Source: a virus
Virus record (IMG/VR): IMGVR_UViG_3300024262_003767
Strand: one strand, 5' to 3'
Length of the DNA stretch: 64,000 bases
The translations under genes and the position numbers were made by a program. The stretch's first letter is position 1, and every line of letters begins with the position of its first letter. This document shows positions 4,706 to 63,868 of the stretch, piece by piece. The notes under the pieces are model-generated. The model was not told the origin of the DNA. It did not search any database and worked only from the letters and a program-made list of their open reading frames with translations.

Positions 4706-5215
4706 TTAAATGTTATTTTGTCTAATTATTTCTTCGAAAATAGTTGATTTTAAATCTTCATACAAATCTTCAAGTGAATTATTAATTTTCTGAGATGTTC
4801 GTATCACTCTTGTTTGTATTATTACATCATCTTTTCTTTCATATTCTGGATCTATACCAACCACTAATCTCATTGCTGTAGGTAAATATTTGCCATATTC
4901 AAATAATGTAATAGGATTTAGTGAACCTTTAGAAAACCAAAAAAGTATAATATTTGATTCTTTTAATTTATTATGTTCCCAAATGATTTGTTCTTTTAAT
5001 TTATTTCTTGATATTTTCTTTGACATTTTCTTCCGTCTCGGATTAAAAATGTCCGTGTGTTCAAACATATTTTTAGTTTGTGGATATTTTTCAGACTTTA
5101 TCTTTTCAATTATTTCATTTTGCCAATTTGGACAATTTGAAATTCCACCTGCTAAAAATAATTTAATTTTATTCAGGCTTTTAAGTTTACTCGGGGCTTC
5201 TAATATTTTTAACAT
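4706..5215 (-). CDS. Nucleoside 2-deoxyribosyltransferase-like protein
   Basis: KIKLFLAGGISNCPNWQ near the N-terminus, and W..L..SNIILFWFS...PITLFEYG, resemble the Nuc_deoxyri_tr2 pattern; motif-level only. Confidence 0.4.
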   Translation of the reverse strand: MLKILEAPSKLKSLNKIKLFLAGGISNCPNWQNEIIEKIKSEKYPQTKNMFEHTDIFNPRRKKMSKKISRNKLKEQIIWEHNKLKESNIILFWFSKGSLNPITLFEYGKYLPTAMRLVVGIDPEYERKDDVIIQTRVIRTSQKINNSLEDLYEDLKSTIFEEIIRQNNI

Positions 5216-5216
5216 T

Positions 5217-5651
5217 TTAATAGTCTGTTATTAATTTTCCAATTAGATGATCATATTCGTGTTGAATTATACGTGCCATAACACCTTCAAATTCTTGTTG
5301 TTTATACTCCCATGCTCTATTGTGATATTGTATTCTAACTCTACCTTTTCGTGTGACAGTTATTGGTATATCAGGCACACTCAAACAACCTTCAGTCATT
5401 TGTTCTGAATGACCAAATGCGTATATTTTAGGATTTATATATGTTTCCTCAAAACCTTCATATGAAACAATAAATAGGTTTAAATTTTTACTAACTTGTG
5501 GTGCTGCTAATCCAACCCCAGTTGATGATCTCAAAGTTTCAAACATATCCGATATTAACTTTTTAGAATGTTCATTATTTATAACATCTATGTTTGGTTT
5601 TCTTAATATACCTCTTGGATCTTGATTATATTTTATTACATCTAATATCAT
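5217..5651 (-). CDS. def: Peptide deformylase
   Basis: All three PDF motifs: GVGLAAPQ, EGCLSVP, QHEYDHL. Confidence 0.9.
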   Translation of the reverse strand: MILDVIKYNQDPRGILRKPNIDVINNEHSKKLISDMFETLRSSTGVGLAAPQVSKNLNLFIVSYEGFEETYINPKIYAFGHSEQMTEGCLSVPDIPITVTRKGRVRIQYHNRAWEYKQQEFEGVMARIIQHEYDHLIGKLITDY

Positions 5652-5657
5652 TATTTG

Positions 5658-6491
5658 TTATATAATTTTTAATTTTTTAAGTTTATCTTTATCATAAACT
5701 TCTATTTTTTTGTCTCTATATTGTTTTTTAAAAGCAAGATATTTATCTTTTGCATCATCTCTCCACCAGCCTTTAACTTCAACATATAAATCACAATCAA
5801 TAAGGTAAAAATCTGGTCTATATGTTCCTTCAGCATTATTATAATTGATAGGAAATGCTTCTGGTTCAAAGAACCATTCTATGTTATTTTTATCCAAATA
5901 AGTTGCATATTTTATTTCCCAAGAACTTCTCATCCACACAGAATCACCATTTTTACATTTATACCATTCACCTTTACCATGATAACATTTACCATAAAAA
6001 TTAGATTCCTTACCTCTTTTTACATTTTTACTTTTATTGATTAGCATTTTTTGATATCTTATGTTTGCTTCTATTTCGCCATATTTTTCTAACCAAACAC
6101 TAAATACTGAACGACCATACATTGGATTTTTATCACCAGACATTTTGACACTTATCTTTTTTTTAGTTTTGTCTGAATGATAATTACCTATGTTAGATTG
6201 ACTTATTTTTTTCTTTACCTCGTCTGTTCTATGCTTACCTTTAAAATGATGTGTATTATTTTTGTGCCATTCGATAAGTTTTTCAATCTTAACATCTTTA
6301 TTTGTATTCGCATTCACTTTATTAGAACACGATAAGCATAGATCATTTTTAACTGCATATCTATATTTTTTTTCTACTTCAGCATCACAATCTTTACATT
6401 TCCAAATTACAGTCTTTTCGCTACTTGGTTTCAAATCATTTGAATAATACCCAAACATATCCTTTGTTTTTTGTTCTAAAATAATACCCAT
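5658..6491 (-). CDS. Homing-endonuclease-like protein (NUMOD3 repeats + PD-(D/E)xK core)
   Basis: CKDCDAEV..CLSC zinc ribbon; NUMOD3-like KISQSNIGNYHSDKTKKKISVKMSGDKNPMYGR; C-terminal YRPDFYLID..LYVEVKGWW; TATATATA box at 6514. Confidence 0.6.
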   Translation of the reverse strand: MGIILEQKTKDMFGYYSNDLKPSSEKTVIWKCKDCDAEVEKKYRYAVKNDLCLSCSNKVNANTNKDVKIEKLIEWHKNNTHHFKGKHRTDEVKKKISQSNIGNYHSDKTKKKISVKMSGDKNPMYGRSVFSVWLEKYGEIEANIRYQKMLINKSKNVKRGKESNFYGKCYHGKGEWYKCKNGDSVWMRSSWEIKYATYLDKNNIEWFFEPEAFPINYNNAEGTYRPDFYLIDCDLYVEVKGWWRDDAKDKYLAFKKQYRDKKIEVYDKDKLKKLKII

Positions 6492-7137: not shown

Positions 7138-7166
7138 AAAAAAAGGGCTACAATAGCCCTTTTTCA
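7138..7166 (-). terminator. Terminator hairpin overlapping the stop of 7148..7390
   Basis: aaaaaaagggcta caa tagcccttttt. Confidence 0.6.
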
Positions 7167-7446: not shown

Positions 7447-7818
7447 TTATTCTGTGTGAAGTTTTCTTATTTTTGATTTTTTATTTAGTTCATCAAGTTT
7501 CATCTTTCTCAACGCCAAATTACCTAAAAATCGTTTAACAGTGGTCCAAACCATGGTGCCTTTATCACCTTGTATTTTTATTTTACCTGGTTTTTTATCT
7601 AAAACTTTATATACCTTACCAACTGTAAAAGATTGTATCTTTTCTGCTGTTCCATTTTTAGAAAATCTTGGATCAAATGATAAATCTCTATCATCAAAAC
7701 ACAATATAGTATCACCTATATTACAATCTCCATGTTTCAACAACATTCTATCAAGTTCTATTTGTTTTTGGTAGAAATGTAAATTATAAAATTTTTTTGA
7801 ACGTAATTTATTTATCAT
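7447..7818 (-). CDS. Hypothetical protein
   Basis: ORF track; ends LRKMKLDELNKKSKIRKLHTE. Confidence 0.5.
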   Translation of the reverse strand: MINKLRSKKFYNLHFYQKQIELDRMLLKHGDCNIGDTILCFDDRDLSFDPRFSKNGTAEKIQSFTVGKVYKVLDKKPGKIKIQGDKGTMVWTTVKRFLGNLALRKMKLDELNKKSKIRKLHTE

Positions 7819-7838
7819 ATAATGATATATGATAAACT

Positions 7839-8660
7839 TTAAGAAATGTTTTCAAGTTTTAATGCTCTGATTTGTTTTTTAGAAAAAATATTAGTTTTTG
7901 ACTTCTTTATTAAATGTGAAAATATTTTATTTTGTATTAATTTTTTCTTTACGGAAAAATCCGCATTTACTATTTTTTCTTCAAATTCAATTAAACATTC
8001 AGGCTCACGACCATCACCTAAATAAACTTTATCTCCTACTGTGTGAAACCAAAACCATTCTATTTTAATGTCATTTTCTTTAAACAATTTATCTACTTCT
8101 GAACTTAAATAATAATAAAAATATGTTAATAATTCAGTTAAAAATTCAGTTTCAGAAAATCCATCATTACTATTTAAATAATAATACCAAAAATTACTAG
8201 GTTCAACACCTAACTCAAGACAAAGATTATCAATTTTATCAATATTTTTGTTGGTTTTATTAAAAACATAGTCATTAAACAAACTTTTAAATGATTTAGT
8301 ATCTCCATTACCTTTATCACAATTACATTTTGAACACATTGTCTGATAATTGGTAGAAGTGTTTTTACCACCTTTAGATTTTGGTATGATGTGATCTTTC
8401 GTCATTAAAATTTCATCACCGTTTTCATTTACACCATACATATTGATGTGATATTTTTCAATTTCGGGTAAATGCTTCTCAATTGCTAAAAAAATTCCTT
8501 CAAGTCCACATTCAACACAGAATCTATTTTCTTGAAATAATTTGTATCGTTGTGAGGTTATCTTAACAGTAACCCCGTTAATTGTTCGGTATCTATTTGG
8601 TCCTACACTATCCTTTAGTTTTTTTAAATAACTTATATCTAATTTACTATGTCTTATCAT
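7839..8660 (-). CDS. HNH homing endonuclease
   Basis: CVECG zinc knuckle, then HNH core LMTKDHIIPKSKGGKNTSTNYQTMCSKCNCDKGN. Confidence 0.75.
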   Translation of the reverse strand: MIRHSKLDISYLKKLKDSVGPNRYRTINGVTVKITSQRYKLFQENRFCVECGLEGIFLAIEKHLPEIEKYHINMYGVNENGDEILMTKDHIIPKSKGGKNTSTNYQTMCSKCNCDKGNGDTKSFKSLFNDYVFNKTNKNIDKIDNLCLELGVEPSNFWYYYLNSNDGFSETEFLTELLTYFYYYLSSEVDKLFKENDIKIEWFWFHTVGDKVYLGDGREPECLIEFEEKIVNADFSVKKKLIQNKIFSHLIKKSKTNIFSKKQIRALKLENIS

Positions 8661-8675
8661 CTTTTTATTTAAAAA

Positions 8676-9188
8676 TTATTTCAGGTAAATAGGATCAACG
8701 TGATCAACTAACCATACACCATTTTCTGATTGATAAAATTTAATTTTATCAACAATCATTGGATAAGTATCAATTTTGAAGATATATGGAGTATCATTTT
8801 TACAATATCTATTTGCAACATCTAAAGCAGTATCATAATCAGCACTTAGATGTACATGATTTCTTTTCATTTTAGAAAGTCCATTTTTTCTAATTGATTT
8901 AACATTTCTAGATGCTGTGCCGTGATATAAAAATTTTGGTGGCATCTTTGATTTCAATTCAACATCAACTTTTAAAGAATGTCCTTGATTTGCTCTAATT
9001 TTAGTTTCATCTTCATTAAAACTAAATCTTTTCTTATCATTATTATCTACAATCCATTGTAAATCTTCAAATGATATATTAACTTTATTCAATAAATCAT
9101 CAACATCAACCCAACCATTTTTATCCATAGACAAATCTTCTGGGTTATGTCTTAATAAATAACTTATTTGTATTCCTTTATTTTTCAT
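8676..9188 (-). CDS. kptA: RNA 2'-phosphotransferase Tpt1/KptA
   Basis: Near end-to-end match to KptA landmarks: LSYLLRHNP, GWVDVDDLL, DKKRFSF, IRANQGHS, PPKFLYHGTASR, HVHLSAD, ENGVWL. Confidence 0.93.
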   Translation of the reverse strand: MKNKGIQISYLLRHNPEDLSMDKNGWVDVDDLLNKVNISFEDLQWIVDNNDKKRFSFNEDETKIRANQGHSLKVDVELKSKMPPKFLYHGTASRNVKSIRKNGLSKMKRNHVHLSADYDTALDVANRYCKNDTPYIFKIDTYPMIVDKIKFYQSENGVWLVDHVDPIYLK

Positions 9189-10275: not shown

Positions 10276-10515
10276 ATGAAAACAATGAAAACTATGCTAA
10301 TAATTTTAGCAATCCTAATGTTAGGAACAACACTTGGAACATCAACACCAAAAGTAAATGAATCTATTTTTGATTTTCCTGAAGAAGAATATATTGATGA
10401 TATTCCTTTTGATACAGATAAGGTAATTAACCAGGACACTTTTAAAATGGAAGAAGAAGGTTATATTGATGATATTCCATTTAATACAGAAAAAGTTGTA
10501 GAAGAATTATCATAA
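10276..10515 (+). CDS. Signal-peptide/anchor protein with two EE.YIDDIPF[DN]T.KV repeats
   Basis: MKTMKTMLIILAILMLGTTLG hydrophobic N-terminus; start uncertain (10219, 10255 or 10276); internal tandem repeat. Confidence 0.5.
   Translation: MKTMKTMLIILAILMLGTTLGTSTPKVNESIFDFPEEEYIDDIPFDTDKVINQDTFKMEEEGYIDDIPFNTEKVVEELS
10381..10500 (+). repeat. Imperfect direct repeat (about 45-50 nt units) encoding the IDDIPF motif twice
   Basis: gaagaagaatatattgatgatattccttttgatacagataaggta versus gaagaagaaggttatattgatgatattccatttaatacagaaaaagttgta. Confidence 0.7.
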
Positions 10516-11070
10516 TTCCTCTACAACTATATTTGTCTTATTGTGTTCGTGATCTGAATAAATATATTTACTTCCAAATAATGGCACTTCTTTCAAATTA
10601 TCTTTTACATACTTACCCCCCATTCCTTTCTTAACATAAGCAATTGTCATGTGTGCATGATAATCTGGATGATTATTTGTGTATTCAAATCTAAAGCACA
10701 TAGTCTTATTAAGTTCTCTTAACTTATCTGAGTGAATATCAAATTTAACAACATCATATTCATCTTGTTCAAATATTGTTATATCACCTCTCATAATATC
10801 ATCTATATCTTCCAATTTAGGTAAATATGTTTTGATATCTTTTGCTATACCATCATAGTGATGAAATCCATATAAAATTGTACAATGTGCCTCATCTTCA
10901 TATCCATAATCATTTGTATCATCATCATCTTGTGATGTGTAAATATCTTCTTCTGGTATCATTCTTCTAATAAATTCGATCCAATTACTAAAAGAAAAAT
11001 ATAACATCAGACAACCTAATTTTGGTTTATCATCTTCCATATAGTTATCAAATTTTAGTATTTCAGCCAT
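10510..11070 (-). CDS. 2H phosphoesterase superfamily protein (LigT/CPDase-like)
   Basis: Two HxT motifs, AHCTILYGF and AHMTIAYV. Start moved to MAEILKF (ATG at 11070), 20 nt from the TATATATA box. Confidence 0.65.
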   Translation of the reverse strand: MAEILKFDNYMEDDKPKLGCLMLYFSFSNWIEFIRRMIPEEDIYTSQDDDDTNDYGYEDEAHCTILYGFHHYDGIAKDIKTYLPKLEDIDDIMRGDITIFEQDEYDVVKFDIHSDKLRELNKTMCFRFEYTNNHPDYHAHMTIAYVKKGMGGKYVKDNLKEVPLFGSKYIYSDHEHNKTNIVVEEL

Positions 11071-11090
11071 AATTTTAATGCTTTTTCTTT

Positions 11091-11098
11091 TATATATA
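11091..11098. promoter_or_regulatory. TATATATA box centred in a divergent intergenic region
   Basis: 20 nt from the minus-strand ATG at 11070 and 22 nt from the plus-strand ATG at 11121. Confidence 0.45.
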
Positions 11099-11120
11099 AA
11101 TAAAAATATTTTTTGTTTAA

Positions 11121-11684
11121 ATGACTGAAAATTTAATAATTGTTGATGTACAACCAACATATAACAAATTTATAGATTTTGATATTGGTGAATTTGTTAG
11201 TTGGATAAATAACTCATCTTTTGATGAGGTTTTTTGTTTATATAATGGTCCTGAATTAGGTTATGAAGATGATGAATGGAGAATATCAAATTGGTATTAT
11301 GATTGGGGATTAGATAGGGATATAAGTTTTAGATTTTTTGAAAAATCTTATGGTTGGTTTCGTGATTTTATGGAAGATATGGATGATGATAATATAATTT
11401 CTATTGGTAAATATATGATAGAACACGACATATGGGATTCGAGATATTTTAAAAAGAAAGATATAAAAATTTTAAAAGATAGAGGAATAAGTACAAGGTA
11501 TTTAGGTAAAGAAAGTAGAGTAATGTATATACCTGAATTAAAAGATTACTTATCAAATAATATATATACTAACGAAGAAATTATTATTTGTGGTGGTGGT
11601 GTCGATGAATGTTACAAAGAAGTTAATATGTTATTGGAAATGATGGGATATAAATTTAAAGAAAAAATAAAATTTGTCTATTAA
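11121..11684 (+). CDS. Hypothetical protein, weak isochorismatase-like pattern
   Basis: LIIVDVQPTY at the N-terminus and IICGGGVDECY near the C-terminus resemble the cysteine-hydrolase fold; weak. Confidence 0.5.
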   Translation: MTENLIIVDVQPTYNKFIDFDIGEFVSWINNSSFDEVFCLYNGPELGYEDDEWRISNWYYDWGLDRDISFRFFEKSYGWFRDFMEDMDDDNIISIGKYMIEHDIWDSRYFKKKDIKILKDRGISTRYLGKESRVMYIPELKDYLSNNIYTNEEIIICGGGVDECYKEVNMLLEMMGYKFKEKIKFVY

Positions 11685-17500: not shown

Positions 17501-18367
17501 ATGACGAAAGTAGATTACAAAACGAATTATATTGAACCTCAAGATTTTAACCTCTTAATTTCAAAATTAAGAGGATTTTTTATGGAAAATGGTTTCCTTG
17601 AGACATTTCCACAACCTAAATTAACAATACTTGCAGCGTGTGAAGACCCAAAAACTGTTAGAAGTTTTGAATTTGGTGGTGAAAAATTTCCACTACCCCA
17701 AACAAATCAGATGAACTTGGAAGAAGAACTTATGGTAGACTCAACAATAGATGGACTTTTTTGCTTAACAGCATCATATAGAGATGAACCAAACCCTATT
17801 GAAGGTCGCCACATGAAATCATTTCCAATGTTTGAAGCAGAACATAAAGGGGATTTTTCAAATCTAATACAAACAATAAGTGAGTGTTGTGTGTATTTAG
17901 GTTTAGTCGAAAAGGTTGCCGATATCCCAATATTCACATATGATGAACTTTGTGAACATTATAAAGTTGAAGATTTAACTTCTACTGAAGAAACATTGAT
18001 GTGTAAAGAATATGGTGATGTTGTCGCTATTACTATGTTTCCTGATAGGACAGATCCATTTTTCAACATGCGTGTTGATGGTTGTAACTTAAAAGGTGAA
18101 AAATTGTCCAACAAAGTAGATTTTATTGTTTGTGGACAGGAAACATTTGGTTGTGCTGAAAGAGAGATAGACATAAACTTAATGAGGAATAACTTCCACA
18201 CAATTAGTAATGGCGGGTATTCTGGACTATTATTTGAAAAATTTGGTAAGGAAAGAGTTGAAAAGGAATTGGAAGACTTTTTGAAATTGCCAATGATTGA
18301 AAGGTGGGGATTTGGTTGTGGTTTGACTAGATTATCAAGAGCAATGAAAAAGAAAGGATTAATTTAA
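17501..18367 (+). CDS. Stand-alone class-II aminoacyl-tRNA-synthetase catalytic core (AsnA/EpmA/AspRS-AsnRS-like), no anticodon-binding domain
   Basis: Motif-2-like ASYRDEPNPIEGRHMKSFPMFEAE and motif-3-like GFGCGLTRLSRAM; 288 aa. Confidence 0.6.
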   Translation: MTKVDYKTNYIEPQDFNLLISKLRGFFMENGFLETFPQPKLTILAACEDPKTVRSFEFGGEKFPLPQTNQMNLEEELMVDSTIDGLFCLTASYRDEPNPIEGRHMKSFPMFEAEHKGDFSNLIQTISECCVYLGLVEKVADIPIFTYDELCEHYKVEDLTSTEETLMCKEYGDVVAITMFPDRTDPFFNMRVDGCNLKGEKLSNKVDFIVCGQETFGCAEREIDINLMRNNFHTISNGGYSGLLFEKFGKERVEKELEDFLKLPMIERWGFGCGLTRLSRAMKKKGLI

Positions 18368-19362
18368 TTAATCCTTTCTTTTTTTAGTAAAATATAATTT
18401 TTACTGATGGAATTATTTATTATTCCTTCATAACTTATTCTATTTGAACCTATCAAATTTAATTTGATATTAAGTTCATTAAAATATTTTCTCATTTCAT
18501 TTCTACCTTGAAATTCTTCAATTTTATCATCTGGACATTTTATTGTATATAACATCAATTTTCTATGTGACATTTGTGATGATTTATTTGTTCTTTTATT
18601 TACACTCCAACTCATATTTCGATAATCATTAGATTTATTATATAGATTATATCCTTTAGATCCATTTTTATATAATATTGCTGCTGGGCTTATTTTGTGT
18701 TTACCTGTTAATTTTTTTTCTTCATTCAATTCTCTAAAATACCCATGTACATTTTTTGAACCACTCATTTTTATTATATCTCCTTGTGGTGTCTTTATTT
18801 CATAAATTACTGATAGTGTTTTTTTTATTTTGTCAATAGTAATGCTAGTTTTATTTTTTTTGTAATTGGCGTTTTTGTGTGTCTCATAATACCTTTTTAA
18901 AGAGTCTCCAATTTTTTTCAATTTAGTTGCACTTCGTTTACTTTCTTGAAATTTTTTTGATATTTTTAACGATGCTGATATATTCTTTTTATGTTTATCT
19001 GTAAAAATTACACCACTTTCACCTTCACCACCATCACTTAAATTTATTAATGATCCTAATTTTAAATCTTTCCTTCCTATCTTTTTTATTGTAAGTTTTT
19101 CTAAATTAAATGATATATTTTCCTTTAAATTTTCATACAATTTAATAATTATTGGTTCTACCCCACTCTCTCTAATTTTTTTAATTTTATAGTACCGTAT
19201 TTTACTTTTTTTTATAACACTTTCATATAAGTGTACTTTAAATCTATCACCCTTACCTTTACCGACATAAAATGGTTCATGATCAAAAATTAAATCATCA
19301 AAAATATATTTACCAGGTTTTCTTGGATCTAAATAAACATAAACATAAAATTCATCACACAT
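18364..19362 (-). CDS. GIY-YIG homing endonuclease
   Basis: FYVYVYLDPRKPGKY ... PFYVGKGKGDRF; NUMOD3-like KHKKNISASLK; antisense, with 3' overlap with the aaRS-like gene. Confidence 0.75.
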   Translation of the reverse strand: MCDEFYVYVYLDPRKPGKYIFDDLIFDHEPFYVGKGKGDRFKVHLYESVIKKSKIRYYKIKKIRESGVEPIIIKLYENLKENISFNLEKLTIKKIGRKDLKLGSLINLSDGGEGESGVIFTDKHKKNISASLKISKKFQESKRSATKLKKIGDSLKRYYETHKNANYKKNKTSITIDKIKKTLSVIYEIKTPQGDIIKMSGSKNVHGYFRELNEEKKLTGKHKISPAAILYKNGSKGYNLYNKSNDYRNMSWSVNKRTNKSSQMSHRKLMLYTIKCPDDKIEEFQGRNEMRKYFNELNIKLNLIGSNRISYEGIINNSISKNYILLKKERIN

Positions 19363-26772: not shown

Positions 26773-27324
26773 ATGGAACAATTAATTTGGAAAAAATGGA
26801 ATCGGGAAACTATTGATGATATCAATCAGTATGTCTTGGATTATGTAAAAAATGTTGATAGGAATGTTAAGATTATTGTTGGTTGTGACTCACATCCACA
26901 TAGAAGAAGATTAGTATATGCTGTCACTATTATTTTATATAATGAATCACTCAGAAAGGGTGCTCACGTTGTTTATGCTAAAGTAAAAATACCAAGATTG
27001 CGTGATGTTAGTGCAAAAATTAGAAAGGAAGCAGAATTTGTTTATACTGTTGCTGAATCCTTAGACCAAACATTAAGGGGCACTTACTATCATAAGTTTG
27101 ATAAAAATACTTACGATGATACTATCCCAACCAAATTAGTTGAAGTTCACGTTGATGTTAATCCTAAGAGAAACACAAGAAATGGTAGAAAATATTCAAA
27201 TAACTTATCTAATGATGTATATCAAGAAATTATGGGTTGGTTATGTGGTTCAGGTTTCAAGGTGTTCGCTAAACCACATGCGTATGGTTCAACTGGATCT
27301 GCGGATAAATTATCAAAAAGTTAA
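26773..27324 (+). CDS. YkuK/DUF458-like RNase H-fold protein
   Basis: IIVGCDSH, YAVTIILY, VEVHVDVNP, GSGFKVFAKPHAYGSTGSADKLSK match the recalled YkuK pattern. Confidence 0.55.
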   Translation: MEQLIWKKWNRETIDDINQYVLDYVKNVDRNVKIIVGCDSHPHRRRLVYAVTIILYNESLRKGAHVVYAKVKIPRLRDVSAKIRKEAEFVYTVAESLDQTLRGTYYHKFDKNTYDDTIPTKLVEVHVDVNPKRNTRNGRKYSNNLSNDVYQEIMGWLCGSGFKVFAKPHAYGSTGSADKLSKS

Positions 27325-27361
27325 ATTAAAAAGCCTAATTATATTAGGCTTTTTAATTTAA
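27321..27361. terminator. Bidirectional terminator, ~19-bp perfect palindrome including both stop codons
   Basis: ttaaattaaaaagcctaat tat attaggctttttaatttaa between convergent genes. Confidence 0.7.
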
Positions 27362-28216
27362 TTCACCTTCCCAAACAATTTTATATTCATATTTACCTGG
27401 TAGTAGTATAATTTCTCTTTGATTTGTATGGTAATATTGTGTTGGTAATTTCTGTACGTCAACTAGTACATCTTTAGGTTGTACTTCCATCATAATAACA
27501 AAAGGTGGTGATGATGGTTGTTCATCCACAAATCTTCTAGCCACTAATATATTTGTAGTCCAAGATGTCGACATATTGAAATCGGATATAACTTTTTCAC
27601 CAACTTTGTATGGTGGGGTTTTTTTTGAAAAATGTTTTATTTGAACTTCTTCAATACCTTTATAAATCTTTAAAGGTTTATCTGGTTTAAAAGGTTTTAA
27701 TTCGTCTATAATATCTTGTGTTAATTTTGATAATAACAAAGAGCCAGAACCTATATATGAATATAACCAATCATCAGTTTTTTCAGATAATTCAACATTT
27801 ATCCTTTCAGGTGTATGTTTATCATATTTAGTAAATCCTCCAATGTAACGAAAAGATATCACATCTCCATTTTTAATTCTTGCTAACCATTCACCTGTTA
27901 TTGAATGTTTATAAAAATAACCAGAATAATCATCAACATCAACTTCTTCATCTTCACTAAATCCAAAAAAATCTACAATTTGTTTATATAGAGGTTTTTT
28001 TGTTTTAATTTGATAGATATATTCACTATTTATATCAGATGCGTCTGCTCTATTTGTTAAATAGATTCTTTTTAAATGATTTAGATTACTAAAATCTATA
28101 TCTTCTAATTTTAATGGTTCATCAGAATATAAATATAAATTTCCATTATATGTTTTTTGATCGTAATCTACTTCATTATAATCTACAAGTTCAAATAATT
28201 TGAATTTAGTTATCAT
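27353..28216 (-). CDS. Candidate ADP-ribosyltransferase (C3/Vip2-like R-S-E class, variant K-STS-QxE) with unknown N-terminal domain
   Basis: KIYKG (aa 183-187), FNMSTSW (aa 213-219), TNQREIILLPGKYEYKI (aa 264-280; compare the C3 exoenzyme QxE ARTT loop as recalled, roughly Q.E.LLPR....Y.I). 11-nt overlap with the CCA-enzyme gene. Confidence 0.4.
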   Translation of the reverse strand: MITKFKLFELVDYNEVDYDQKTYNGNLYLYSDEPLKLEDIDFSNLNHLKRIYLTNRADASDINSEYIYQIKTKKPLYKQIVDFFGFSEDEEVDVDDYSGYFYKHSITGEWLARIKNGDVISFRYIGGFTKYDKHTPERINVELSEKTDDWLYSYIGSGSLLLSKLTQDIIDELKPFKPDKPLKIYKGIEEVQIKHFSKKTPPYKVGEKVISDFNMSTSWTTNILVARRFVDEQPSSPPFVIMMEVQPKDVLVDVQKLPTQYYHTNQREIILLPGKYEYKIVWEGELN

Positions 28217-29465
28217 TCATAAGATATTCATTTTTGAAACGCACAATCTCTCGTCTTTTCTTTTCTATTTCAATTTCAATTCCTTTGAAACCTTCAGCAG
28301 CTAAATCATTACCATTAACCACAAATCCATCATTACAATAATCAACAAATGGTTTATAGAATTCTTCACCCAAAAACTCATAAATTAAATCATCATCAAT
28401 ATGATATTGATTTTTCATTTTAGCCAAACCGTAAACATTTGAAACGTCAATGTTTTTAAATGATTTCCAATGTAAATCTAATTCCTTCTCAAGTTTGAGC
28501 AAAAATTCAATCTGGTTCACTAACTTGGAACTAAATTTCAATTCACTAATCATATATTTTCTCAATTTACGAATATCATTATCACGAAGTAAATGTGCAA
28601 ATAATATTGCGGAAATAGGTTTTGGTGTAAATCCATCGGGAGATATTTTCAATTTGGGAAACATTTGTTCCCACATATCATATTCAGTTAATAGTCTGAT
28701 ATAATTTTCTAATATTTTGTTTCCGCCTTTTTCTGCGTGTTCAATTACCTTATTCCATTCTTCATGTATTCTTTCTTGTGATACATCTTCTTTGGTACTT
28801 ATACCACGTAGTCTGTTATCACTTTTAATGGCTCTTGATGTCTCAGGTGATATGATACCACCTTTTCTACCTTGGGCTCTTGCAGCGAATCTAAATACTC
28901 TTAAAATTCTTAATCTATCTTCTTTAAATCTCTCAGCAGGATCACCAACAGCACGTATAACATTATTTTCAATATCTTTAACTCCACCAACCAAATCTAC
29001 AATTTCTTTTTTATTTATATCATAGAAAAGAGCATTGATAGTTAAATCTCTACGTTTAACATCATCTTCGATTGTAATATGGTTTCCAATTTCTACTTTA
29101 TCATCATCACCTTTTGTATCTCTACCTCCAGAAATATCTTTTCTAAAAGTTGCTAATTCGTGTCCGAGTGGTTCATCTTCAGTATAAATTCTAAGTACGC
29201 CAAAATTTTTACCTTGTTCATCAGAAACATTCCAACCTTTCAAAATTCTTTTACTTTCTTCTGGTAGAGCATTTGTGACTAAATCAAAATCATGTGGTAT
29301 CTTTTTTTGCAAAAAATCACGAACCGCTCCACCAACAACATAGATATCTTTACCAGCATTATTGAAGGCTCTTGATATTTCTTTAATGTCATAAGGAATA
29401 GGCATCTCAACAGAGATAGTATTTTCAGTTATAAATTCTAAATATTTTTTTAATTTTTCTACCAT
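28206..29465 (-). CDS. cca: tRNA nucleotidyltransferase (CCA-adding enzyme / poly(A) polymerase family)
   Basis: VVGGAVRDFLQKKIPHDFDLVT, RRDLTINALFYD, ERFKEDRLRILRVFRFAAR. Confidence 0.85.
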   Translation of the reverse strand: MVEKLKKYLEFITENTISVEMPIPYDIKEISRAFNNAGKDIYVVGGAVRDFLQKKIPHDFDLVTNALPEESKRILKGWNVSDEQGKNFGVLRIYTEDEPLGHELATFRKDISGGRDTKGDDDKVEIGNHITIEDDVKRRDLTINALFYDINKKEIVDLVGGVKDIENNVIRAVGDPAERFKEDRLRILRVFRFAARAQGRKGGIISPETSRAIKSDNRLRGISTKEDVSQERIHEEWNKVIEHAEKGGNKILENYIRLLTEYDMWEQMFPKLKISPDGFTPKPISAILFAHLLRDNDIRKLRKYMISELKFSSKLVNQIEFLLKLEKELDLHWKSFKNIDVSNVYGLAKMKNQYHIDDDLIYEFLGEEFYKPFVDYCNDGFVVNGNDLAAEGFKGIEIEIEKKRREIVRFKNEYLMNDN

Positions 29466-31366: not shown

Positions 31367-31774
31367 TTATTTTTTTTGAAACTTTTTTATACGCTTAATA
31401 GTTTCTTTAAGATCTTCTTCATAATATAATATTAAAAAGTCAACATCCCTCTCATTAATATTATATCTTTTCATTAAATCATCTATCTCTTCTTTTTTAA
31501 ATTTAGATTTGATTTTTGTGGTTTTATTTATTTTAGTTTGCCAATACCAACCAGGTATATTTGTTGTACTACCAAATATTGCGAACCAAATATCTAATGA
31601 TGATGGTTTATTTATATTTTTATTATTAAAAAATTGTGCTTTTTTTATATCCTTATAGGCGAATTTGCGATTGAGAATAAAAAAATTTCTTTCTTTATCA
31701 TCATCAGTAATAAACCTATATTTATCTTTATCTTTGAAGATGATGTTTCCTAAACTTATAAAATCAATTGCCAT
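31367..31774 (-). CDS. Hypothetical protein
   Basis: ORF track; 1-nt overlap with upstream kinase gene. Confidence 0.5.
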   Translation of the reverse strand: MAIDFISLGNIIFKDKDKYRFITDDDKERNFFILNRKFAYKDIKKAQFFNNKNINKPSSLDIWFAIFGSTTNIPGWYWQTKINKTTKIKSKFKKEEIDDLMKRYNINERDVDFLILYYEEDLKETIKRIKKFQKK

Positions 31775-33954
31775 TAATAAAATTGTTTAAATATTTTTGA
31801 GATTTTTTCTTTTGTTATTGGTTTTACAATTTGAAAATCTATATTCTTCTCTACCATATCTGTGGTAGATATTGTAATTATAGTTAACTCTTCATCTATT
31901 TGTTTTAATTTTTCTATGAAATCTAGTATATTAATATTTGATAAACTCATATCTATAAATATTGCATCAATATCACCTAATTTTTCTTCAAGTACATCAA
32001 GTGTTTCCTTTGATGATAGTGTCCATTTAATTTTAACATTCATAGATTTTAACATTATACCTAATAATGAATAGTTTTCAGGTATATCTTCTAATACTAT
32101 CACTTTAATATTAGAAAAATCATACACAATTTTATTAACTTGTTTTGTTTGAATATTTTGAACTTCTTGTAATGGAAGAGTAAAAAAGAATGTGCTTCCT
32201 TCTTTTTGAGTTGAATCTACCCATATATTTCCACCAAGTATATTAACTATACTTTTTGCGATAGATAATCCCAATCCTGTACCTTGGTATTGTTTTTTTG
32301 ATGATGCATCAACTTGCATAAATTTATCAAAAACTATTTCTAATTTATCTTCTGGAATACCAATACCAGTATCTTCAACAAAGAATGTTATAATATTGTC
32401 TTTTATTCTTGTACCAATTCTTATATGTCCACTTTCAGTAAATTTAATTGCATTACTAATCAAATTATATAATACCTGTTTTAATCTAAGAAAATCAGAC
32501 ACTATTATTTCATTATCTTCTCGTTTTTCGAAAGTTAATTTTACCGAATCTATATTCTTTCTAATATTTATATCTATAAAAATTTCTTCTAATTCTTCAA
32601 ATAAATCATTGATTGGGAATCGTTCATATAATAGTTCTAAATTTAATTCACCTGCTTCAATTTTAGCATAATCTAATATGTTATTTAATAATTCTTCTAA
32701 ATGTTTTGCATTAGCATTTATAGTTTTAAGAAATTTTTTATTATTGGTAGTATCAAACTTATCATCTAATAATATATCTGAAAAGCCTATAATCGAATTC
32801 ATTGGCGTTCTTATTTCGTGACTCATATTTGCCAAAAATAGTGACTTTAAAAGATCACTTTTTTCTGCTTCTATTTTTGATTTTTCTAATTCTATTTTAA
32901 TATTTTCTTGTTCTGTAATATCTTTACAATGAATTGCAATATACTCCGTTGAGCCATTATCATTTAAAATGGGATATATGTAATTTTCAAAATATTTATT
33001 ATTTATAACATCAATAAAATGTACTGGTTTGCCTGTAAATATTGCTTCAAGTGTTCTTTTTCTTTTGGGTTCTACACTCTCTTTAGGTAAAATCTGTGAT
33101 ATGTTCACTCCTACTAATTCTTCTCTTGTTTTATTAAAATATTTACAACCTCTATCATTTATTGCTAATAACTCACCTACTTTATTTGTTAAATAAGATG
33201 CACTTAATGTTGAATTTATAATATCTAAGTGTTGTCTCTCCTTTATTTTCATATCAGTAATATCTTGAAATATGGTAACAAAACGATGTGAGTTTTGTTT
33301 ATATGCATCAATTAAAAACCATTTCTGAAAAATATATGAATATTTTTCAAAATGTAAAGTCTTATTATCAGTAAATATTTGAGAATATATCCTTATCCAT
33401 TCACTCGAATCTTTATCTAATATTTCAGTTATATTTTTTCCAATAATTTCTGAATCTAAACCTGTGGTTTCGGTGAACGCTTTATTTATTCTAACAAATT
33501 TATAATCAATAGGTTTGCCACTATTATCAAATATCATTTCATGTAGAGAAAATGCTCGACTCATATTATCAATAATCTTTTCAAGTTCTTCACTTTTAAA
33601 AATATAATCTTTACTTATTTGAGATAAATGTTTTTCATCTTGATATACAACATGTACAAAATTTTCCTCACCTCGATAGATATAATTATATCTCCAACGA
33701 TTAAATTTATCGTCTTTATACTCTTTTAATTCGTGTGTCATACATTCTCCACTATCATACACTTTTAATATTTTATCATAAATACCAAAGTCGATTACTT
33801 TAGAAAAAACATCAACCAATTTTTTATCAATAACATCATATTCAATTCTTTCTACCGTATAAAAATTTTCTGATACTTCGTGAAAATATATATCTTCATC
33901 GATAATTTTATATGTGATAGAAACAAAATCAAAAATTTTTTCAAAATTTTTCAT
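31774..33954 (-). CDS. Soluble PAS-PAS hybrid sensor histidine kinase with C-terminal receiver domain
   Basis: H-box FLANMSHEIRTPMNSIIGF, N-box NLISNAIKFT, G1 DTGIGI, G2 GTGLGLSI. Receiver IKVIVLED..AIFIDMSL..IITIST..IVKPI. No TM segment. Confidence 0.85.
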   Translation of the reverse strand: MKNFEKIFDFVSITYKIIDEDIYFHEVSENFYTVERIEYDVIDKKLVDVFSKVIDFGIYDKILKVYDSGECMTHELKEYKDDKFNRWRYNYIYRGEENFVHVVYQDEKHLSQISKDYIFKSEELEKIIDNMSRAFSLHEMIFDNSGKPIDYKFVRINKAFTETTGLDSEIIGKNITEILDKDSSEWIRIYSQIFTDNKTLHFEKYSYIFQKWFLIDAYKQNSHRFVTIFQDITDMKIKERQHLDIINSTLSASYLTNKVGELLAINDRGCKYFNKTREELVGVNISQILPKESVEPKRKRTLEAIFTGKPVHFIDVINNKYFENYIYPILNDNGSTEYIAIHCKDITEQENIKIELEKSKIEAEKSDLLKSLFLANMSHEIRTPMNSIIGFSDILLDDKFDTTNNKKFLKTINANAKHLEELLNNILDYAKIEAGELNLELLYERFPINDLFEELEEIFIDINIRKNIDSVKLTFEKREDNEIIVSDFLRLKQVLYNLISNAIKFTESGHIRIGTRIKDNIITFFVEDTGIGIPEDKLEIVFDKFMQVDASSKKQYQGTGLGLSIAKSIVNILGGNIWVDSTQKEGSTFFFTLPLQEVQNIQTKQVNKIVYDFSNIKVIVLEDIPENYSLLGIMLKSMNVKIKWTLSSKETLDVLEEKLGDIDAIFIDMSLSNINILDFIEKLKQIDEELTIITISTTDMVEKNIDFQIVKPITKEKISKIFKQFY

Positions 33955-33955
33955 A

Positions 33956-34525
33956 TCATTTTAATTTTTTGAAACAAACTCTACATAAAGGTTTATAACT
34001 TTCATTACCACCAATTTCTATTTGTTCTCCTTCGGTAACTATAATATTATCTTTAAATCTACTATTTACAATGGCTTTTTTGTTTTTACATTCAGAACAT
34101 ATCGTTTTTATTTCTTCTATACTATCTGCCATCGTCATTAAATATTTTGAACCTTCAAATGGTTCCAATCTATAGTCTGATCTTAAACCATAACATATTA
34201 CAGGTATGTTTAATATATCGACAATATCTGACAATTGAAAAATGTGGTCTTTTGTTAAAAATTGTGATTCGTCCACTAAAATAGCCTTTATTTCATATGC
34301 CATTGGTTTAACATATTGGTATATATTTAATTTTTTATCTACAGGAATTGCAGGTTTACTTAAACCTACCCGAGACTTAACCACACCTTCTCCATACCTA
34401 GTATCTAAGGCTGATGTGAAGATTAAAATTTTTTCATTATTCTCTTCATAATTATATGAAACTTTCAGTAAATCAAGGCTTTTACCAGCACCCATGCTGG
34501 AATATCGGAAAAATAATTTTGCCAT
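33956..34525 (-). CDS. tdk: Thymidine kinase
   Basis: P-loop SSMGAGKS, VDESQFL, zinc site CSECKNK..CRVCF. Confidence 0.9.
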   Translation of the reverse strand: MAKLFFRYSSMGAGKSLDLLKVSYNYEENNEKILIFTSALDTRYGEGVVKSRVGLSKPAIPVDKKLNIYQYVKPMAYEIKAILVDESQFLTKDHIFQLSDIVDILNIPVICYGLRSDYRLEPFEGSKYLMTMADSIEEIKTICSECKNKKAIVNSRFKDNIIVTEGEQIEIGGNESYKPLCRVCFKKLK

Positions 34526-34876: not shown

Positions 34877-34916
34877 AATAAAAAAAGGGAGATGAAAGTC
34901 TCCCTTTTTTTTATTT
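34876..34916. terminator. Bidirectional terminator
   Basis: aaataaaaaaa gggaga tgaaag tctccc ttttttttattt between convergent genes. Confidence 0.7.
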
Positions 34917-39402: not shown

Positions 39403-39912
39403 ATGAATTGGTATGTAATACGAGTAGTAACTAGTAAAGAAAAGAAAACAAAAGAATTAATTGAAAAAGAATTGGAACTATATAAATTAGATAATAAAGT
39501 GTCTCAAATTTTGGTTCCAAGTAAGAAAGTGATGCAAATGAGAAATGGTAAAAAATATACTATTGAAAAGAATGATTTTCCAGGATATATTCTCATCGAA
39601 ACGGATAAAGTTGATGAACTAGTTTCAACTATTAAAAATGTTTCAAATGTTTTAGGGTTTTTAGGTGTGACTCACCCAGAACCACTAAGGCAAAGAGAGG
39701 TGGAAACAATCGTTGGTAGACAAAATAACACAATAGTTGAAGATAAATATTTTATTGGTGAAGTTGTAAAAGTCACCGACGGTCCTTTTAACTCATTTGT
39801 TGGTGAAATTATTCTAGTGAATGATAAGAAGAAAGCTGTAAAAGTGAACATTAAAGTTTTTGGACGTGATGTTCCAGTAGATTTGACTTATATTCAGATA
39901 GAAAAGAATTAG
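39403..39912 (+). CDS. nusG: Transcription termination/antitermination factor NusG
   Basis: NGN start NWYVIRVVTSKEKK; KOW GEVVKVTDGPFNSFVGEIILVNDKKKAVKVNIKVFGRDVPVDL. Confidence 0.85.
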   Translation: MNWYVIRVVTSKEKKTKELIEKELELYKLDNKVSQILVPSKKVMQMRNGKKYTIEKNDFPGYILIETDKVDELVSTIKNVSNVLGFLGVTHPEPLRQREVETIVGRQNNTIVEDKYFIGEVVKVTDGPFNSFVGEIILVNDKKKAVKVNIKVFGRDVPVDLTYIQIEKN

Positions 39913-39923
39913 AACAAAAACTT

Positions 39924-39967
39924 TTCTAAACAAAAAAAGAGGCTCACGCCTCTTTTTTTGTTTAGAA
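39924..39967. terminator. Bidirectional terminator, 20-bp perfect palindrome
   Basis: ttctaaacaaaaaaagaggc tcac gcctctttttttgtttagaa between nusG and the S1 gene. Confidence 0.75.
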
Positions 39968-39975
39968 AAAATGGA

Positions 39976-41106
39976 TTATTCCTCTTTTTCTTTAACTAAG
40001 TTAAGATATATCTTTCTATCATCTTTGATAACAGAAATAACCTTAACTTTTACTTGATCACCTTTCGTTAATTTGGCATTATTCTTCACAAGGTATGTGG
40101 TTTGTATTAACCCCATAGTTTCATAGTCAAGTGAAATTAATGCTCCAAAATTTTTCACATCAATTACTTTTCCTGATAATATTTTACCTACTTTAATTTT
40201 ATCCCAAAGAGACTCTTTTAAAGATTGTGTTAGTATAATCTTTTGACTTTTTGTGATTTCCTTAACATAAAAATCAATTGCCATACCAGGTAGGATTTGG
40301 TGCCATCTATCTTGCCACTCAGTATTTATGTTCATTTTATGAATCATACCTGTAAGACAATTATTGAATTGAACAAATACTCCAAATGGTGTTGTTCCAG
40401 TAACTTCGCCTGCATAAACGACATCATTTTTTAGTTTTTTGATCTCTTCTGGTATAAGTGTCTTAAGATATTTTCTTCGTGAAACAACATAAACCCCCTT
40501 TTCTTGTTGCAATGTCTCTAACATCACATTTAGAGTTTCACCAATAATTGATTCAGGATTTGCGAGTTTATTAACATCAGCTAATGTATTTGGCATAAAC
40601 GCATCGATAGTTACATTATCCATATAAATATCAAGCATATAGCCTGCTGGTATTAATTCCTTCACCTTAGCAACAAGTGATAATCTTTCTTCATAATAAG
40701 TTTTCAATTTATTATGAACATTCATTTTAATTAATTCTGTAATAGATCCTCTTATTAAGAATGGATCGTCTTGAATTGATGTTATTAGTACATCAATTTG
40801 TGAACCAGGCTCTAACCCTATCACTAATTTTCCTTTTGGTGTGTCAACATAAATGTAGTCTTTATACCCAAAATCAACAGTTATTTCTGTATCATCTATA
40901 GATACTATCACACCTTTGATTATTTCCCCTTCTCTTACTTCTCTTAAATCAAGAAAAGTTTTTTCCATCATACGATAAAGATTTTGATAATCTTCAGTAA
41001 GATTAGATAAATCACCTTTTACTTTGATTATTTCTCTATCATTAGTTAGAAACGGAAAAGGATCAGGAAGTGATCCTACATTTACGCCTTCGATTAATTT
41101 CGACAT
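39976..41106 (-). CDS. rpsA: Ribosomal protein S1-like protein (four S1/OB domains, 376 aa)
   Basis: GEIIKGVIVSIDDTEITVDFG, GYMLDIYMDNVTIDAFMP, YAGEVTGTTPFGVFVQF..LTGMIH, LSGKVIDVKNFGALISL..GLI. Confidence 0.8.
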   Translation of the reverse strand: MSKLIEGVNVGSLPDPFPFLTNDREIIKVKGDLSNLTEDYQNLYRMMEKTFLDLREVREGEIIKGVIVSIDDTEITVDFGYKDYIYVDTPKGKLVIGLEPGSQIDVLITSIQDDPFLIRGSITELIKMNVHNKLKTYYEERLSLVAKVKELIPAGYMLDIYMDNVTIDAFMPNTLADVNKLANPESIIGETLNVMLETLQQEKGVYVVSRRKYLKTLIPEEIKKLKNDVVYAGEVTGTTPFGVFVQFNNCLTGMIHKMNINTEWQDRWHQILPGMAIDFYVKEITKSQKIILTQSLKESLWDKIKVGKILSGKVIDVKNFGALISLDYETMGLIQTTYLVKNNAKLTKGDQVKVKVISVIKDDRKIYLNLVKEKEE

Positions 41107-61100: not shown

Positions 61101-61279
61101 AAATTGATAAATGTATATTCATTAAGAATATCTATTTCTTCAACTCTAAAGTCAGTTTTACTTTTTATATCCCAAACCAAAAATCCATGTTTATCAACAT
61201 CTTCACCAAATGATTGTTGAACTGGACTACCAGGGTAACCAATAGTTGGTATTTTTTTCTTTATTTTTATTTTAGACAT
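58112..61279 (-). CDS. Fusion protein: C-terminal fragment of Mre11/SbcD nuclease (aa 1-~187) + Rad50/SbcC SMC-like ATPase (aa ~188-1055)
   Basis: IGYPGSPVQQSFGEDVDKHGF (post-motif-V segment of SbcD); P-loop HGENQQGKTT at aa 220-229; CPACG zinc hook; very long coiled coils; Walker B FIILDEIMG. Confidence 0.85.
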   Translation of the reverse strand: MSKIKIKKKIPTIGYPGSPVQQSFGEDVDKHGFLVWDIKSKTDFRVEEIDILNEYTFINLYINEGEDYDNLTLHTNERIGNFPEFKVHWKDLSSNINTENERKIRNFIKNKYDSTKVKFDKTYIYTDMVSSKMLSETLDLTNVETQRKIFKEYLEEQGYKKNDIDEILKIDDLINDRLEIKEQKTNIEWKIEKFWFDNFRVFGDKNKIDWKDLNGIIQIHGENQQGKTTILDVITYILYGTTTTTVKREKHGDNRYINNKRKLNKCSGGAVLDIDGEKITILRKTERDENRSGEIKSCSTNVDYYDTEEIKEKNKQTGERKTQTQKKLDLILGDFKDFVRISLTNADNLNELLSADRSVFMDSIIRDAGYDIFEKKQNEYKDYKKDLNIEKIIVDVSQSEQEISEIVNVIEEKKNTIKEQKKLIIDFKLELDSENSLRDNLIKKLNKIDESMINFDLNISNNTLSNYNQKIDDNKVQISIYDRDINELPSKFEPDKLNNLKDKLKLTNDKISKIKEEISSVKTNNNEIDTKVDKVKQKLREFRDKEINNLKDKINIKEKEISNVESEKLSIINSKIISIKDEIKKNELEKINLENKIRNLKKDGSNLKSRNDEKLQEIEEFKNSSFCPACGRDYDESTPDHLEHIQEKIKTLEHDIEINTIKIKDLIEEYKDLTPIIPELEEKIQTLRLKRDKLTSGEYDEEILSELNVLQDTKYLENEILMIESLIERLKNNDLSINEELKNKFDKGKMLLKKLDKDKNDNLSVIKNLENELKSLNIESIEDDIQHEEKIKENYELRKDKVNLKEKLTLNIDNYLLKIKEIEQTINNFKMYESQIEENKQTQLDIDDKDVYILELKSNIDEKYIVISEIKKEIALLEKSIEDIQSRIEKFIQQKKQEELMKEYQRCISRDGIPTYLLKKSIHLINKELNDLLTNVDFTLFFNDDLILKLSMDDRLDVSQNAIESSGKERTFCALTLKIALRQINVKSRPNFIILDEIMGKLYEKSVMEFIELLDEIKNKIDKIIIIEHVHPINYDGLITVKKNDNLISSLITDF

Positions 61280-62148
61280 TTATTTAATTTTATTTTAAAT
61301 TCACCATTTAGAATATTGGTTTCCCAGAACCTTAAAATATTAAAATTATTAGATTTTGAAAGTTCATCTTTAAAAATATCATTTTCAATATTTAACATCT
61401 GAGTCTTATTTAATTCATTTATATTAAATATGTTGGGGTTAGCATGCCAATAATCACCATCTGCCTCAATAATTATATTTTTATCTATTAACATAAAATC
61501 ATATATTTTATATCTTAATTTACCATCAAGTTTATAGTATATTCTAAATTGTGGTTTATATTTTATTGATTTTTCATCTAAAAAATCACCTATAATTTTT
61601 TCTATTTTAGTTTTACTTTTTTTAAATAACCCTTTATGTGCGATTTCCGTCATACTTAAACCATATCTTTCAATGCAAGTATTATTAATTTTTTTTCTAC
61701 ATTCATCGTCTTTCCAATTATGTGTTGTACCATATCGTTCTAAGAACGTATTTTTTCTTTTTATTTTTGATTCAGGTTTCCATCCAAATGGAAATTCATT
61801 ATTTTGATTATATTCTAATTTAGATTTCCTAACTTTATTTTTATAATTTTCATCACTCCACAATTTTTTAGTTATTTTTGAATGTAAATCTTTACTTTCT
61901 TGTGTTTTTACCTTACCAAACATTGGATTTTTTTCACCAACATATATAATTTTTTTATGCTCATCACAACATTTCCTTGAGCAATATTTTTTATCATCAG
62001 ATACTAATACTTCAATATCAACTCCACAATTTATACAATAAATAATTTTTCTTTCAACCTTAGATTTCTTATAATCTTTATATTGACATTTCCTTGAACA
62101 ATATTTCTTATTATTATGTTTCTCACCACAAACTATACATTTTTTCAT
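61267..62148 (-). mobile_element. Free-standing homing-endonuclease-like gene inserted inside the mre11/sbcD coding region
   Basis: CIVCGE..CSRKC and CINCG..CSRKCC knuckles, NUMOD3-like GEKNPMFGK, ERYG repeats, Vsr/DUF559 core YDFMLID..IIIEADGDYWH; own TATATATA box at 62170. Confidence 0.65.
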
Positions 62149-63768: not shown

Positions 63769-63780
63769 ATGAAATTCTAA

Positions 63781-63828
63781 ATACAAATAAAAAAACCAAT
63801 CATTTTTGATTGGTTTTTTTATTTGTAT
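63781..63828. terminator. Terminator, 22-bp perfect palindrome
   Basis: atacaaataaaaaaaccaatca tttt tgattggtttttttatttgtat. Confidence 0.75.
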
Positions 63829-63868
63829 TTTTTTATTACTTTTGTGACATTATTATAAAATTTTTAAT

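Follow-up and report, generated by a model that had tools for sequence, protein, structure and literature searches.

A four-domain ribosomal protein S1 homologue and a NusG as putative, separate takeover genes of a huge AT-rich phage

Homologues of ribosomal protein S1 (bS1) have already been described in huge phages. Genomes without Shine-Dalgarno (SD) sites were reported to encode phage rpS1 by Al-Shayeb et al. (2020, Nature 578:425), who proposed that the protein serves ribosome hijacking and noted that a "true" rpS1 is hard to confirm as opposed to a generic S1-domain protein, and the domains that are kept were not resolved. Published work on Escherichia coli bS1 indicates what such a protein would have to keep. 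Ribosome binding depends on F5 and F9, an essential pair that stacks on Phe32 of uS2; K43 reaches into the zinc pocket of uS2, and F120 and F130 lie at the mRNA exit. Domains 1 to 3 are the functional minimum in E. coli, and an rpsA allele without domains 5 and 6, the smallest truncation whose growth is slowed no more than modestly, is viable, with near-normal formation of the 30S initiation complex. In this study, we analyzed a stretch of viral DNA of 64,000 nucleotides, IMG/VR record IMGVR_UViG_3300024262_003767 (the window, by which we mean this whole stretch), and within it the segment from position 39,403 to 41,106, in which a gene for NusG and a gene for a shortened S1 face each other across a palindrome (Table 1). 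We consider it reasonably probable, judging from sequence comparison, that these are two separate genes by which a huge AT-rich phage would take over translation and transcription. The phage S1 and the idea that it biases initiation are known from Al-Shayeb et al.; what appears to be new here is the colinearity of the phage protein with bS1 domains 1 to 4 and the apparent retention of the residues that anchor bS1 to uS2.

The evidence for this architecture comes from several kinds of comparison. Pfam S1 matches the 376-residue open reading frame (ORF) at 1.9e-22 in three significant stretches, and phmmer places residues 46-371 in one colinear alignment with residues 8-347 of E. coli bS1 (6e-18). 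A profile of 47 family members matches E. coli bS1 at 6e-37, colinear with residues 11-348. An AlphaFold2 (AF2) model with a pLDDT (predicted local distance difference test) of 71 has a disordered segment (residues 1-32), a helix (33-52), and four OB folds, and its best Foldseek match is the bS1 chain 9gut_B (2e-22). Because of the colinear alignment, the family profile, and the four modeled OB folds, we conclude that the phage protein keeps bS1 domains 1 to 4 and lacks domains 5 and 6. The preliminary description of this DNA had counted four S1/OB domains against six in E. coli, a count with which phmmer, the family profile, and the AF2 model all agree. Its question of which domains are retained can also be answered: the ribosome-binding domains 1 and 2, with the putative uS2 helix and the lysine equivalent to K43, and the RNA-binding domains 3 and 4 are kept, and domains 5 and 6 are lost.

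Phage S1 and E. coli bS1 have in common a lysine loop in domain 1, an aromatic patch in OB domain 2, and the order of the canonical RNA-binding domains 3 and 4, and probably also an N-terminal helix with an aromatic pair. They differ in that the phage protein has four OB domains instead of six, is only ~20% identical to cellular bS1, and carries an additional N-terminal extension of 35 residues. HMMER aligns 36-LTEDYQNLY-44 of the phage protein with 1-MTESFAQLF-9 of E. coli, so that Y40 and Y44 match F5 and F9. K82 aligns to E. coli K43; it is invariant in the 47 family members and lost only in the most distant representatives. Since these anchor features appear to be kept, and since an E. coli allele without domains 5 and 6, which the phage protein resembles, is viable, phage S1 looks like a competent minimal S1 and not like a generic S1-domain protein.

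The family to which this protein belongs (~350 to 420 residues) occurs only on phage or metagenome contigs. Its 120 best relatives are 52-100% identical, 370-400 residues long, and encoded on contigs of up to 711 kb. An exhaustive search of 1.84 billion representatives yielded 132 S1 clusters (50% identity) at E<1e-30, nearly all of 350-420 residues, and the family profile retrieves 39 IMG/VR viral contigs. Among 185,579 bacterial and archaeal species, with one representative genome each, there was a single family match, on a 26,068-bp contig of a metagenome-assembled genome. An IMG/VR viral contig has the same size and the same match (58% over residues 51-368), and the cellular match is therefore probably a binning error. 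Viral members are already named "30S ribosomal protein S1" in UniProt/BFVD; PHROGs v4 has no family matching phage S1. The rpS1 proteins of the huge-phage genomes LR756500-4 and LR745206 belong to the same family (35-48% identity by tblastn), and by Foldseek the identity is 43% to A0A8D9CG03 ("30S ribosomal protein S1 [uncultured marine phage]") and 34% to A0A7S9STL2 (Virus NIOZ-UU157). Huge-phage rpS1 and the window S1 share a length class of ~370-390 residues, SD-less genomes, and the same proposed role, and the window S1 is set apart by its membership in a distinct subclade (at least 61% identity), by an LPDPFPF motif, and by the neighboring NusG. The ratio of nonsynonymous to synonymous substitution rates (dN/dS) of S1 is ~0.07 against its two closest relatives, at unsaturated dS.

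The N-terminal extension, which E. coli bS1 does not have, is a candidate specificity element. Its motif is nearly invariant in the subclade of the window S1. Numerous distant members of the family have [DE]F[DNS]W[DE]x[YHL] in the extension, where the window subclade has LPDPFPF instead. The F-[DNS]-W portion recalls the aromatic helix FLANFNWHNF of Flavobacterium johnsoniae bS1 (PDB 9zcd_A), which is likewise extended at its N terminus and whose aromatic helix contacts uS8. The two extensions could not be shown to be homologous, and a profile of the extension alone found no match in the PDB at E≤10. We therefore treat the likeness of the motif to the uS8-contacting helix as a lead only.

The facing gene encodes a NusG of an already known kind, and the copy in the window is ordinary. 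On the curated NCBI equivalog model TIGR00922 (nusG), the protein reaches 144.3 bits (cut-off, 135.7) over residues 3-168, including the KOW region, over which Pfam KOW (residues 119-148) stays below threshold at 19.7 bits against 22.3. The protein aligns end to end with the solved NusG structures of Bacillus subtilis (3e-29) and E. coli (2e-26). An NGN-plus-KOW protein of 169 residues, as first described, is thus what the gene encodes. The FPGY core is kept, and the KOW segment KVFGRDVPV aligns with E. coli SIFGRATPV, which places the phage F153-G-R motif on F165-G-R of E. coli, a loop that we take to contact uS10 and Rho. The specialized paralogues RfaH, LoaP, and UpxY were rejected as identities for this protein, as its scores fall below their family cut-offs (LoaP, 92.6 against 125; UpxY, 49 against 100; RfaH, 35 against 144.5). 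It matches phrog_6386, "transcription antiterminator," at 1e-26; carriers of this PHROG family such as Microcystis phage MaAM05 and Synechococcus phages have the same architecture, and NusG genes are annotated in cyanophages and in other phages too. No paper came up when the literature was searched for NusG in combination with "jumbo phage."

About 15 phage relatives of this NusG are 62-77% identical to it, and the next matches are Bacteroidota NusG proteins at 45-52%, 52% being the highest identity to any cellular NusG. With housekeeping NusG (TIGR00922) it shares the NGN and KOW architecture and the FPGY and FGR motifs; it differs in being phage borne, in being monophyletic with other huge-phage copies, and in the NGN-KOW linker, which in all phage NusG proteins compared, including those of the relatives designated L002 and L006-L016, is ~5-6 residues shorter than in Bacteroidota NusG. 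In a neighbor-joining tree, all NusG proteins adjoining phage S1 genes cluster with 98% bootstrap beside Bacteroidota sequences, and this grouping fits a single old acquisition followed by vertical descent. The dN/dS of NusG is 0.04-0.17 against close relatives, with dS near saturation, and both NusG and S1 are under purifying selection. In the sister NusG subclade, the G-F-L-G segment at the end of NGN is lost and F-G-R is sometimes F-D-R or F-E-R. In L002, an IS605 OrfB/TnpB gene (7734-8948) adjoins NusG.

The source of the window is a very large phage related to the Mahaphage genomes. The window has a G+C content of 26.9%, and at both the DNA and the protein level it is matched best by IMG/VR contigs and by the huge-phage genomes LR756501-4 and LR745206. 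The five named genomes, complete at 630-735 kb and labeled "uncultured phage," are the best matches among phage records, and Lak phages give partial S1 matches. Al-Shayeb et al. (2020) joined five genomes of >634 kb and the Lak phages in the Mahaphage clade, with predicted Bacteroidetes hosts. The gene content of the window is of the huge-phage type as well, with a ClpB-like chaperone, a hybrid histidine kinase, an SPFH protein, and NAD salvage enzymes, along with the head of a CCA/polyA polymerase, a class II aminoacyl-tRNA synthetase (aaRS) catalytic core, peptide deformylase, Tpt1, numerous homing endonucleases, and one virion-protein fragment. No tRNA was found in the 64-kb window, and an Rfam scan of it matched no family. 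The translation initiation signals are of the Bacteroidia style: a 4-mer SD core precedes only 5 of the 77 window genes, and the leaders have 57-70% A at positions -19 to -9, which bears out the earlier remark on AT-rich leaders. The affinity of NusG, the lack of SD sites in the leaders, and the hosts predicted in the literature for related genomes together suggest that the host is probably a member of the Bacteroidota. The Bacteroidota -7 promoter motif TAnnTTTG was considered as an argument for use of the host RNA polymerase and was rejected, as the signal is too weak: there are 136 sites in the window against 111 ± 10.5 expected, the motif lies at most 100 nucleotides upstream in 10 of the 77 genes, and none was found upstream of NusG or S1.

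In the model that we favor, phage S1, a natural "delta-5-6" bS1, would dock on the platform of the host 30S subunit via its putative uS2-binding helix (Y40/Y44) and K82, and the conserved N-terminal extension may assist this docking. Domains 3 and 4 would then capture the A-rich SD-less leaders of phage mRNAs, with phage S1 supplementing or replacing the readily exchanging host bS1 during infection. NusG, derived long ago from a Bacteroidota-like NusG, would bind host RNA polymerase via NGN, and its KOW domain would bind uS10 or Rho, bringing elongation and termination under phage control. The convergent S1 and NusG transcripts would each end at a single bidirectional intrinsic terminator. Several observations weigh against this model. 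The register of the N-terminal helix shifts between HMMER runs, and some family members carry L, F, or H at position 44, which is not aromatic in all of them. S1 stays well short of all NCBIfam rpsA equivalog cut-offs (at best 120.4 bits against 524), and the four-domain Firmicutes rpsA model gives 88 bits against 368; given these scores and the presence of four domains only, we file the protein as a phage S1 homologue and not as an rpsA equivalog. The family profile scores F. johnsoniae bS1 at 100.6 bits and E. coli bS1 at 130.7, which leaves a Bacteroidota origin of S1 unsupported, unlike that of NusG. Finally, the host assignment draws solely on the three arguments given above.

The intergenic palindrome is predicted to be an ordinary bidirectional intrinsic terminator that is not peculiar to this gene pair. 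It was first reported as a perfect 20-bp palindrome at 39924-39967; it is perfect and does lie between the convergent genes, but its arms are 22 nucleotides long (39922-39943 and 39948-39969), 100% complementary, and separated by a 4-nucleotide UCAC loop. The core stem GAGGC/GCCUC is flanked by a run of A7 on one side and U7 on the other, which gives a hairpin with a U-tract on each strand. The predicted folding energies are -29.6 kcal/mol for the plus strand and -30.7 kcal/mol for the minus strand (z about -9), and none of 200 shuffled sequences was as stable. This is the arrangement of known bidirectional Rho-independent terminators, a G+C stem flanked by A- and U-tracts between convergent stop codons, and the short G+C core (5-6 pairs) and long A/U arms are as expected at 27% GC and nothing unusual. 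Perfect palindromes of the same kind (A-run, G+C stem, T-run) occur at 7140-7164, 18347-18383, 27321-27361, 34880-34911, 46900-46933, and 63779-63830, most of them where convergent genes end, and that at 18347 overlaps the stop codons of both genes. Since similar palindromes mark several other gene ends, the shared palindrome does not set this pair apart, and bidirectional terminators appear to be standard punctuation of this phage genome. In the relatives L002, L003, L045, and L046, different palindromes stand at the same position after S1, so that the hairpin is kept although its letters vary; one exchange is compensatory, AAAC...GUUU in the window being AAAU...AUUU in L045 (C/G to U/A). L047, which has no convergent gene after S1, has a one-way hairpin followed by T9.

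Several other readings of the two genes have to be weighed against separate takeover genes. The preliminary description presented S1 and NusG together, and a functional pair would provide phage-specific ribosome loading on nascent SD-less mRNAs, with NusG tethering RNA polymerase to uS10 and phage S1, seated on the 30S platform, capturing the A-rich leader as it emerges. This has some appeal, as the two co-transcriptional routes of 30S recruitment in E. coli use bS1 and NusG-uS10 according to the literature, the KOW FGR motif is kept, and both genes are present in 5 of the 6 related huge-phage genomes with an S1 match. Of 22 loci with an S1 of 61% identity or more, 21 also have the two genes as neighbors, with NusG 70-2,040 bp past the stop codon of S1 and nearly always convergent. 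However, convergent genes cannot share a transcript, which excludes co-transcription, and the adjacency is gone outside this one subclade: none of 21 loci with S1 at 57% identity or less has NusG within 6 kb, and the two genes are ~370 kb apart in LR756501, a 735-kb relative. Within the subclade, genes are inserted between the two in L003 and in L045 (where a CarboxypepD_reg gene of 107 residues lies at 5176-5499), the block of NusG, radical SAM, and CapR genes is inverted in L001 (1830-4366), and the close relative L047, whose S1 is 77% identical, lacks a NusG gene within 4 kb. Moreover, the whole neighborhood is collinear in relatives (genes of 610, 100, and 218 residues, then S1, NusG, and radical SAM, with thymidine kinase and histidine kinase beyond), so the adjacency carries no extra signal and there is no sign of selection for linkage. 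We read the S1-NusG adjacency as inherited synteny within one subclade and not as a functional unit, and we regard a functional pair as quite unlikely. A more elaborate version, in which the phage owns co-transcriptional ribosome loading by S1 and NusG on Bacteroidota ribosomes with their sequestered anti-SD sequence, and in which S1 is anchored at uS2 and, via its extension, at a second platform site such as uS8, as in Bacteroidia bS1, and from there catches the nascent A-rich leader, strikes us as a long shot; if it were true, phage mRNAs would gain privileged initiation.

The remaining alternatives concern what S1 does and where the genes came from. Phage S1 could act off the ribosome, where it would chaperone RNA, protect mRNA, or assist a phage enzyme as its cofactor, much as host S1 serves T4 RegB and Q-beta replicase. 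Several phages are known from the literature to use host S1 off the ribosome, Al-Shayeb et al. (2020) left "on or off the ribosome" open, RNA-repair and RNA-processing genes are abundant in the window, and the S1 surface in question (N-terminal helix, D39, and K43) also binds Q-beta replicase. Yet the lysine, helix aromatics, and OB domain 2 patch that phage S1 appears to keep are known in cells only as 30S contacts, domains 1 and 2 do not bind RNA, and the family correlates with SD-less genomes, and a role away from the ribosome seems unlikely to us. Another possibility is that S1 acts as a selective filter or decoy that displaces host bS1 from uS2, disfavors host mRNAs, and aids host shut-off. 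The apparently intact anchor and the absence of the two C-terminal domains from every family member would suit this role, as would the literature proposal that domains 5 and 6 serve specific mRNAs, and the extension could raise affinity, in parallel with the phage bS21 extensions proposed for competitive binding by Al-Shayeb et al. (2020). E. coli S1 without domains 5 and 6, however, supports growth and near-normal initiation, so that truncation alone does not amount to selectivity, and the raised affinity is a supposition; we give this role a small chance. It is extremely improbable that the phage took up the two genes from a host recently or carries them as decaying passengers without a function. 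The nearest cellular relatives of NusG are indeed Bacteroidota, the likely host phylum, but near-identity to a host gene, named at the outset as a sign of passive capture, was not found: NusG is at most 52% and S1 ~20% identical to cellular sequences, and S1 occurs in no cellular genome apart from the one likely mis-binned contig. Together with the intactness and conservation of both genes across dozens of divergent phage contigs and their low dN/dS, this excludes recent capture.

Upstream of S1, which is the last gene before the terminator, lies a block of three co-oriented, conserved genes that in relatives invariably come before S1. The proteins of 614, 113, and 218 residues have no family matches. 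The largest, with 54-87% identity over more than 100 contigs, was considered as a tail sheath or other late structural protein, an identity by which the expression of S1 could have been dated; this was not upheld, as it has no match in Pfam, PHROG, or PDB sequences and its AF2 model (pLDDT 61) resembles generic Ig/FN3-like folds only. A PAS-HisKA-HATPase-REC hybrid histidine kinase stands beside thymidine kinase at 31774-34525 (minus strand), and the same pair is found downstream of NusG in L001 and L002.

The two genes had also been placed in a broad ribosome-directed toolkit, and this claim stands in part. Peptide deformylase, the CCA/polyA-polymerase head, and the class II aaRS core are present; the HPF-like ORF is weak, and the supposed RlmN/Cfr-like enzyme can be called radical SAM only. 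The aaRS core could be an EpmA/PoxA-like or AsnA-like enzyme instead of a synthetase. The proteins bS21, IF1, and IF3 were not found in the window.

Other genes of the window may bear on the contest with host defenses. A NAD salvage set on the minus strand, at 50077-52078 and 3690-4088, comprises a nicotinate phosphoribosyltransferase, an adjacent isochorismatase/nicotinamidase-like protein, and a NUDIX hydrolase, and it may counter NAD-depleting defenses. Candidates for RNA repair or anti-defense lie at 8676-9188, 10510-11160, 28206-29465, and 52165-52569, all on the minus strand: a Tpt1/KptA 2'-phosphotransferase (7e-47), a weak 2H phosphoesterase/Acb1-like match, the CCA-adding/polyA-polymerase head, and a cREC_REC cyclic-phosphate receiver domain. 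Homing-endonuclease-like genes are dense (1422-2321, 5658-6491, 7839-8660, 18364-19362, and 61267-62148), with DUF7487, NUMOD3 with endonuclease I, HNH, and GIY-YIG types.

Table 1. Positions of the S1 and NusG genes, their predicted domains, the terminator between them, and other features of the window
Feature	Position	Strand	Remarks
Phage NusG, 169 aa	39403..39912	+	NGN + KOW; TIGR00922, phrog_6386
NGN domain of NusG, residues 1-103	39403-39711	+	Pfam NusG/NGN 3e-19
KOW domain of NusG, ~residues 119-148, after short linker	39757-39846	+	Pfam KOW
Bidirectional intrinsic terminator (predicted)	39922..39969	.	Perfect 22-nt inverted repeat, between two stop codons
Phage four-domain S1, 376 aa	39976..41106	-	Colinear with bacterial bS1 domains 1-4
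S1 OB domain 4, residues 309-370	39997..40182	-	Best-scoring Pfam S1 stretch
S1 OB domain 3, residues 231-293	40228..40416	-	Canonical RNA-binding S1 motif TGTTPFGVFVQF..CLTGMIHK
S1 OB domain 2, residues 144-209	40480..40677	-	Y156/F170 = E. coli F120/F130; AFMPNTL = AFLPGSL
S1 OB domain 1, residues 62-121	40744..40923	-	Loop D78-F-G-Y-K82 = E. coli D39-A-G-L-K43
S1 N-terminal helix, residues 36-52	40951..41001	-	LTEDYQNLY aligned to E. coli MTESFAQLF
S1 N-terminal extension, residues 1-35	41002..41106	-	Predicted disordered; motif ELIEGVNIGxLPDPFPF
Three tightly spaced co-oriented genes, 614, 113, and 218 aa	41176..44050	-	Upstream of S1; same order in relatives
Peptide deformylase	5217-5651	-	5e-39
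Class II aaRS catalytic core, 288 aa	17501-18367	+	tRNA-synt_2 4e-16; without anticodon-binding domain
HPF-like ORF, 99 aa	24950-25249	-	Weak similarity, local phmmer 4e-5

Huge phages carry many translation genes, and the apparent retention of the anchoring half of bS1 together with two RNA-binding domains makes the idea of ribosome hijacking concretely testable. For F. johnsoniae, assays of S1-dependent SD-less initiation and cryo-electron microscopy of the 30S subunit exist. If this idea of hijacking is borne out, it would show how a virus retunes the selection of start sites in a phylum that ignores SD sequences.

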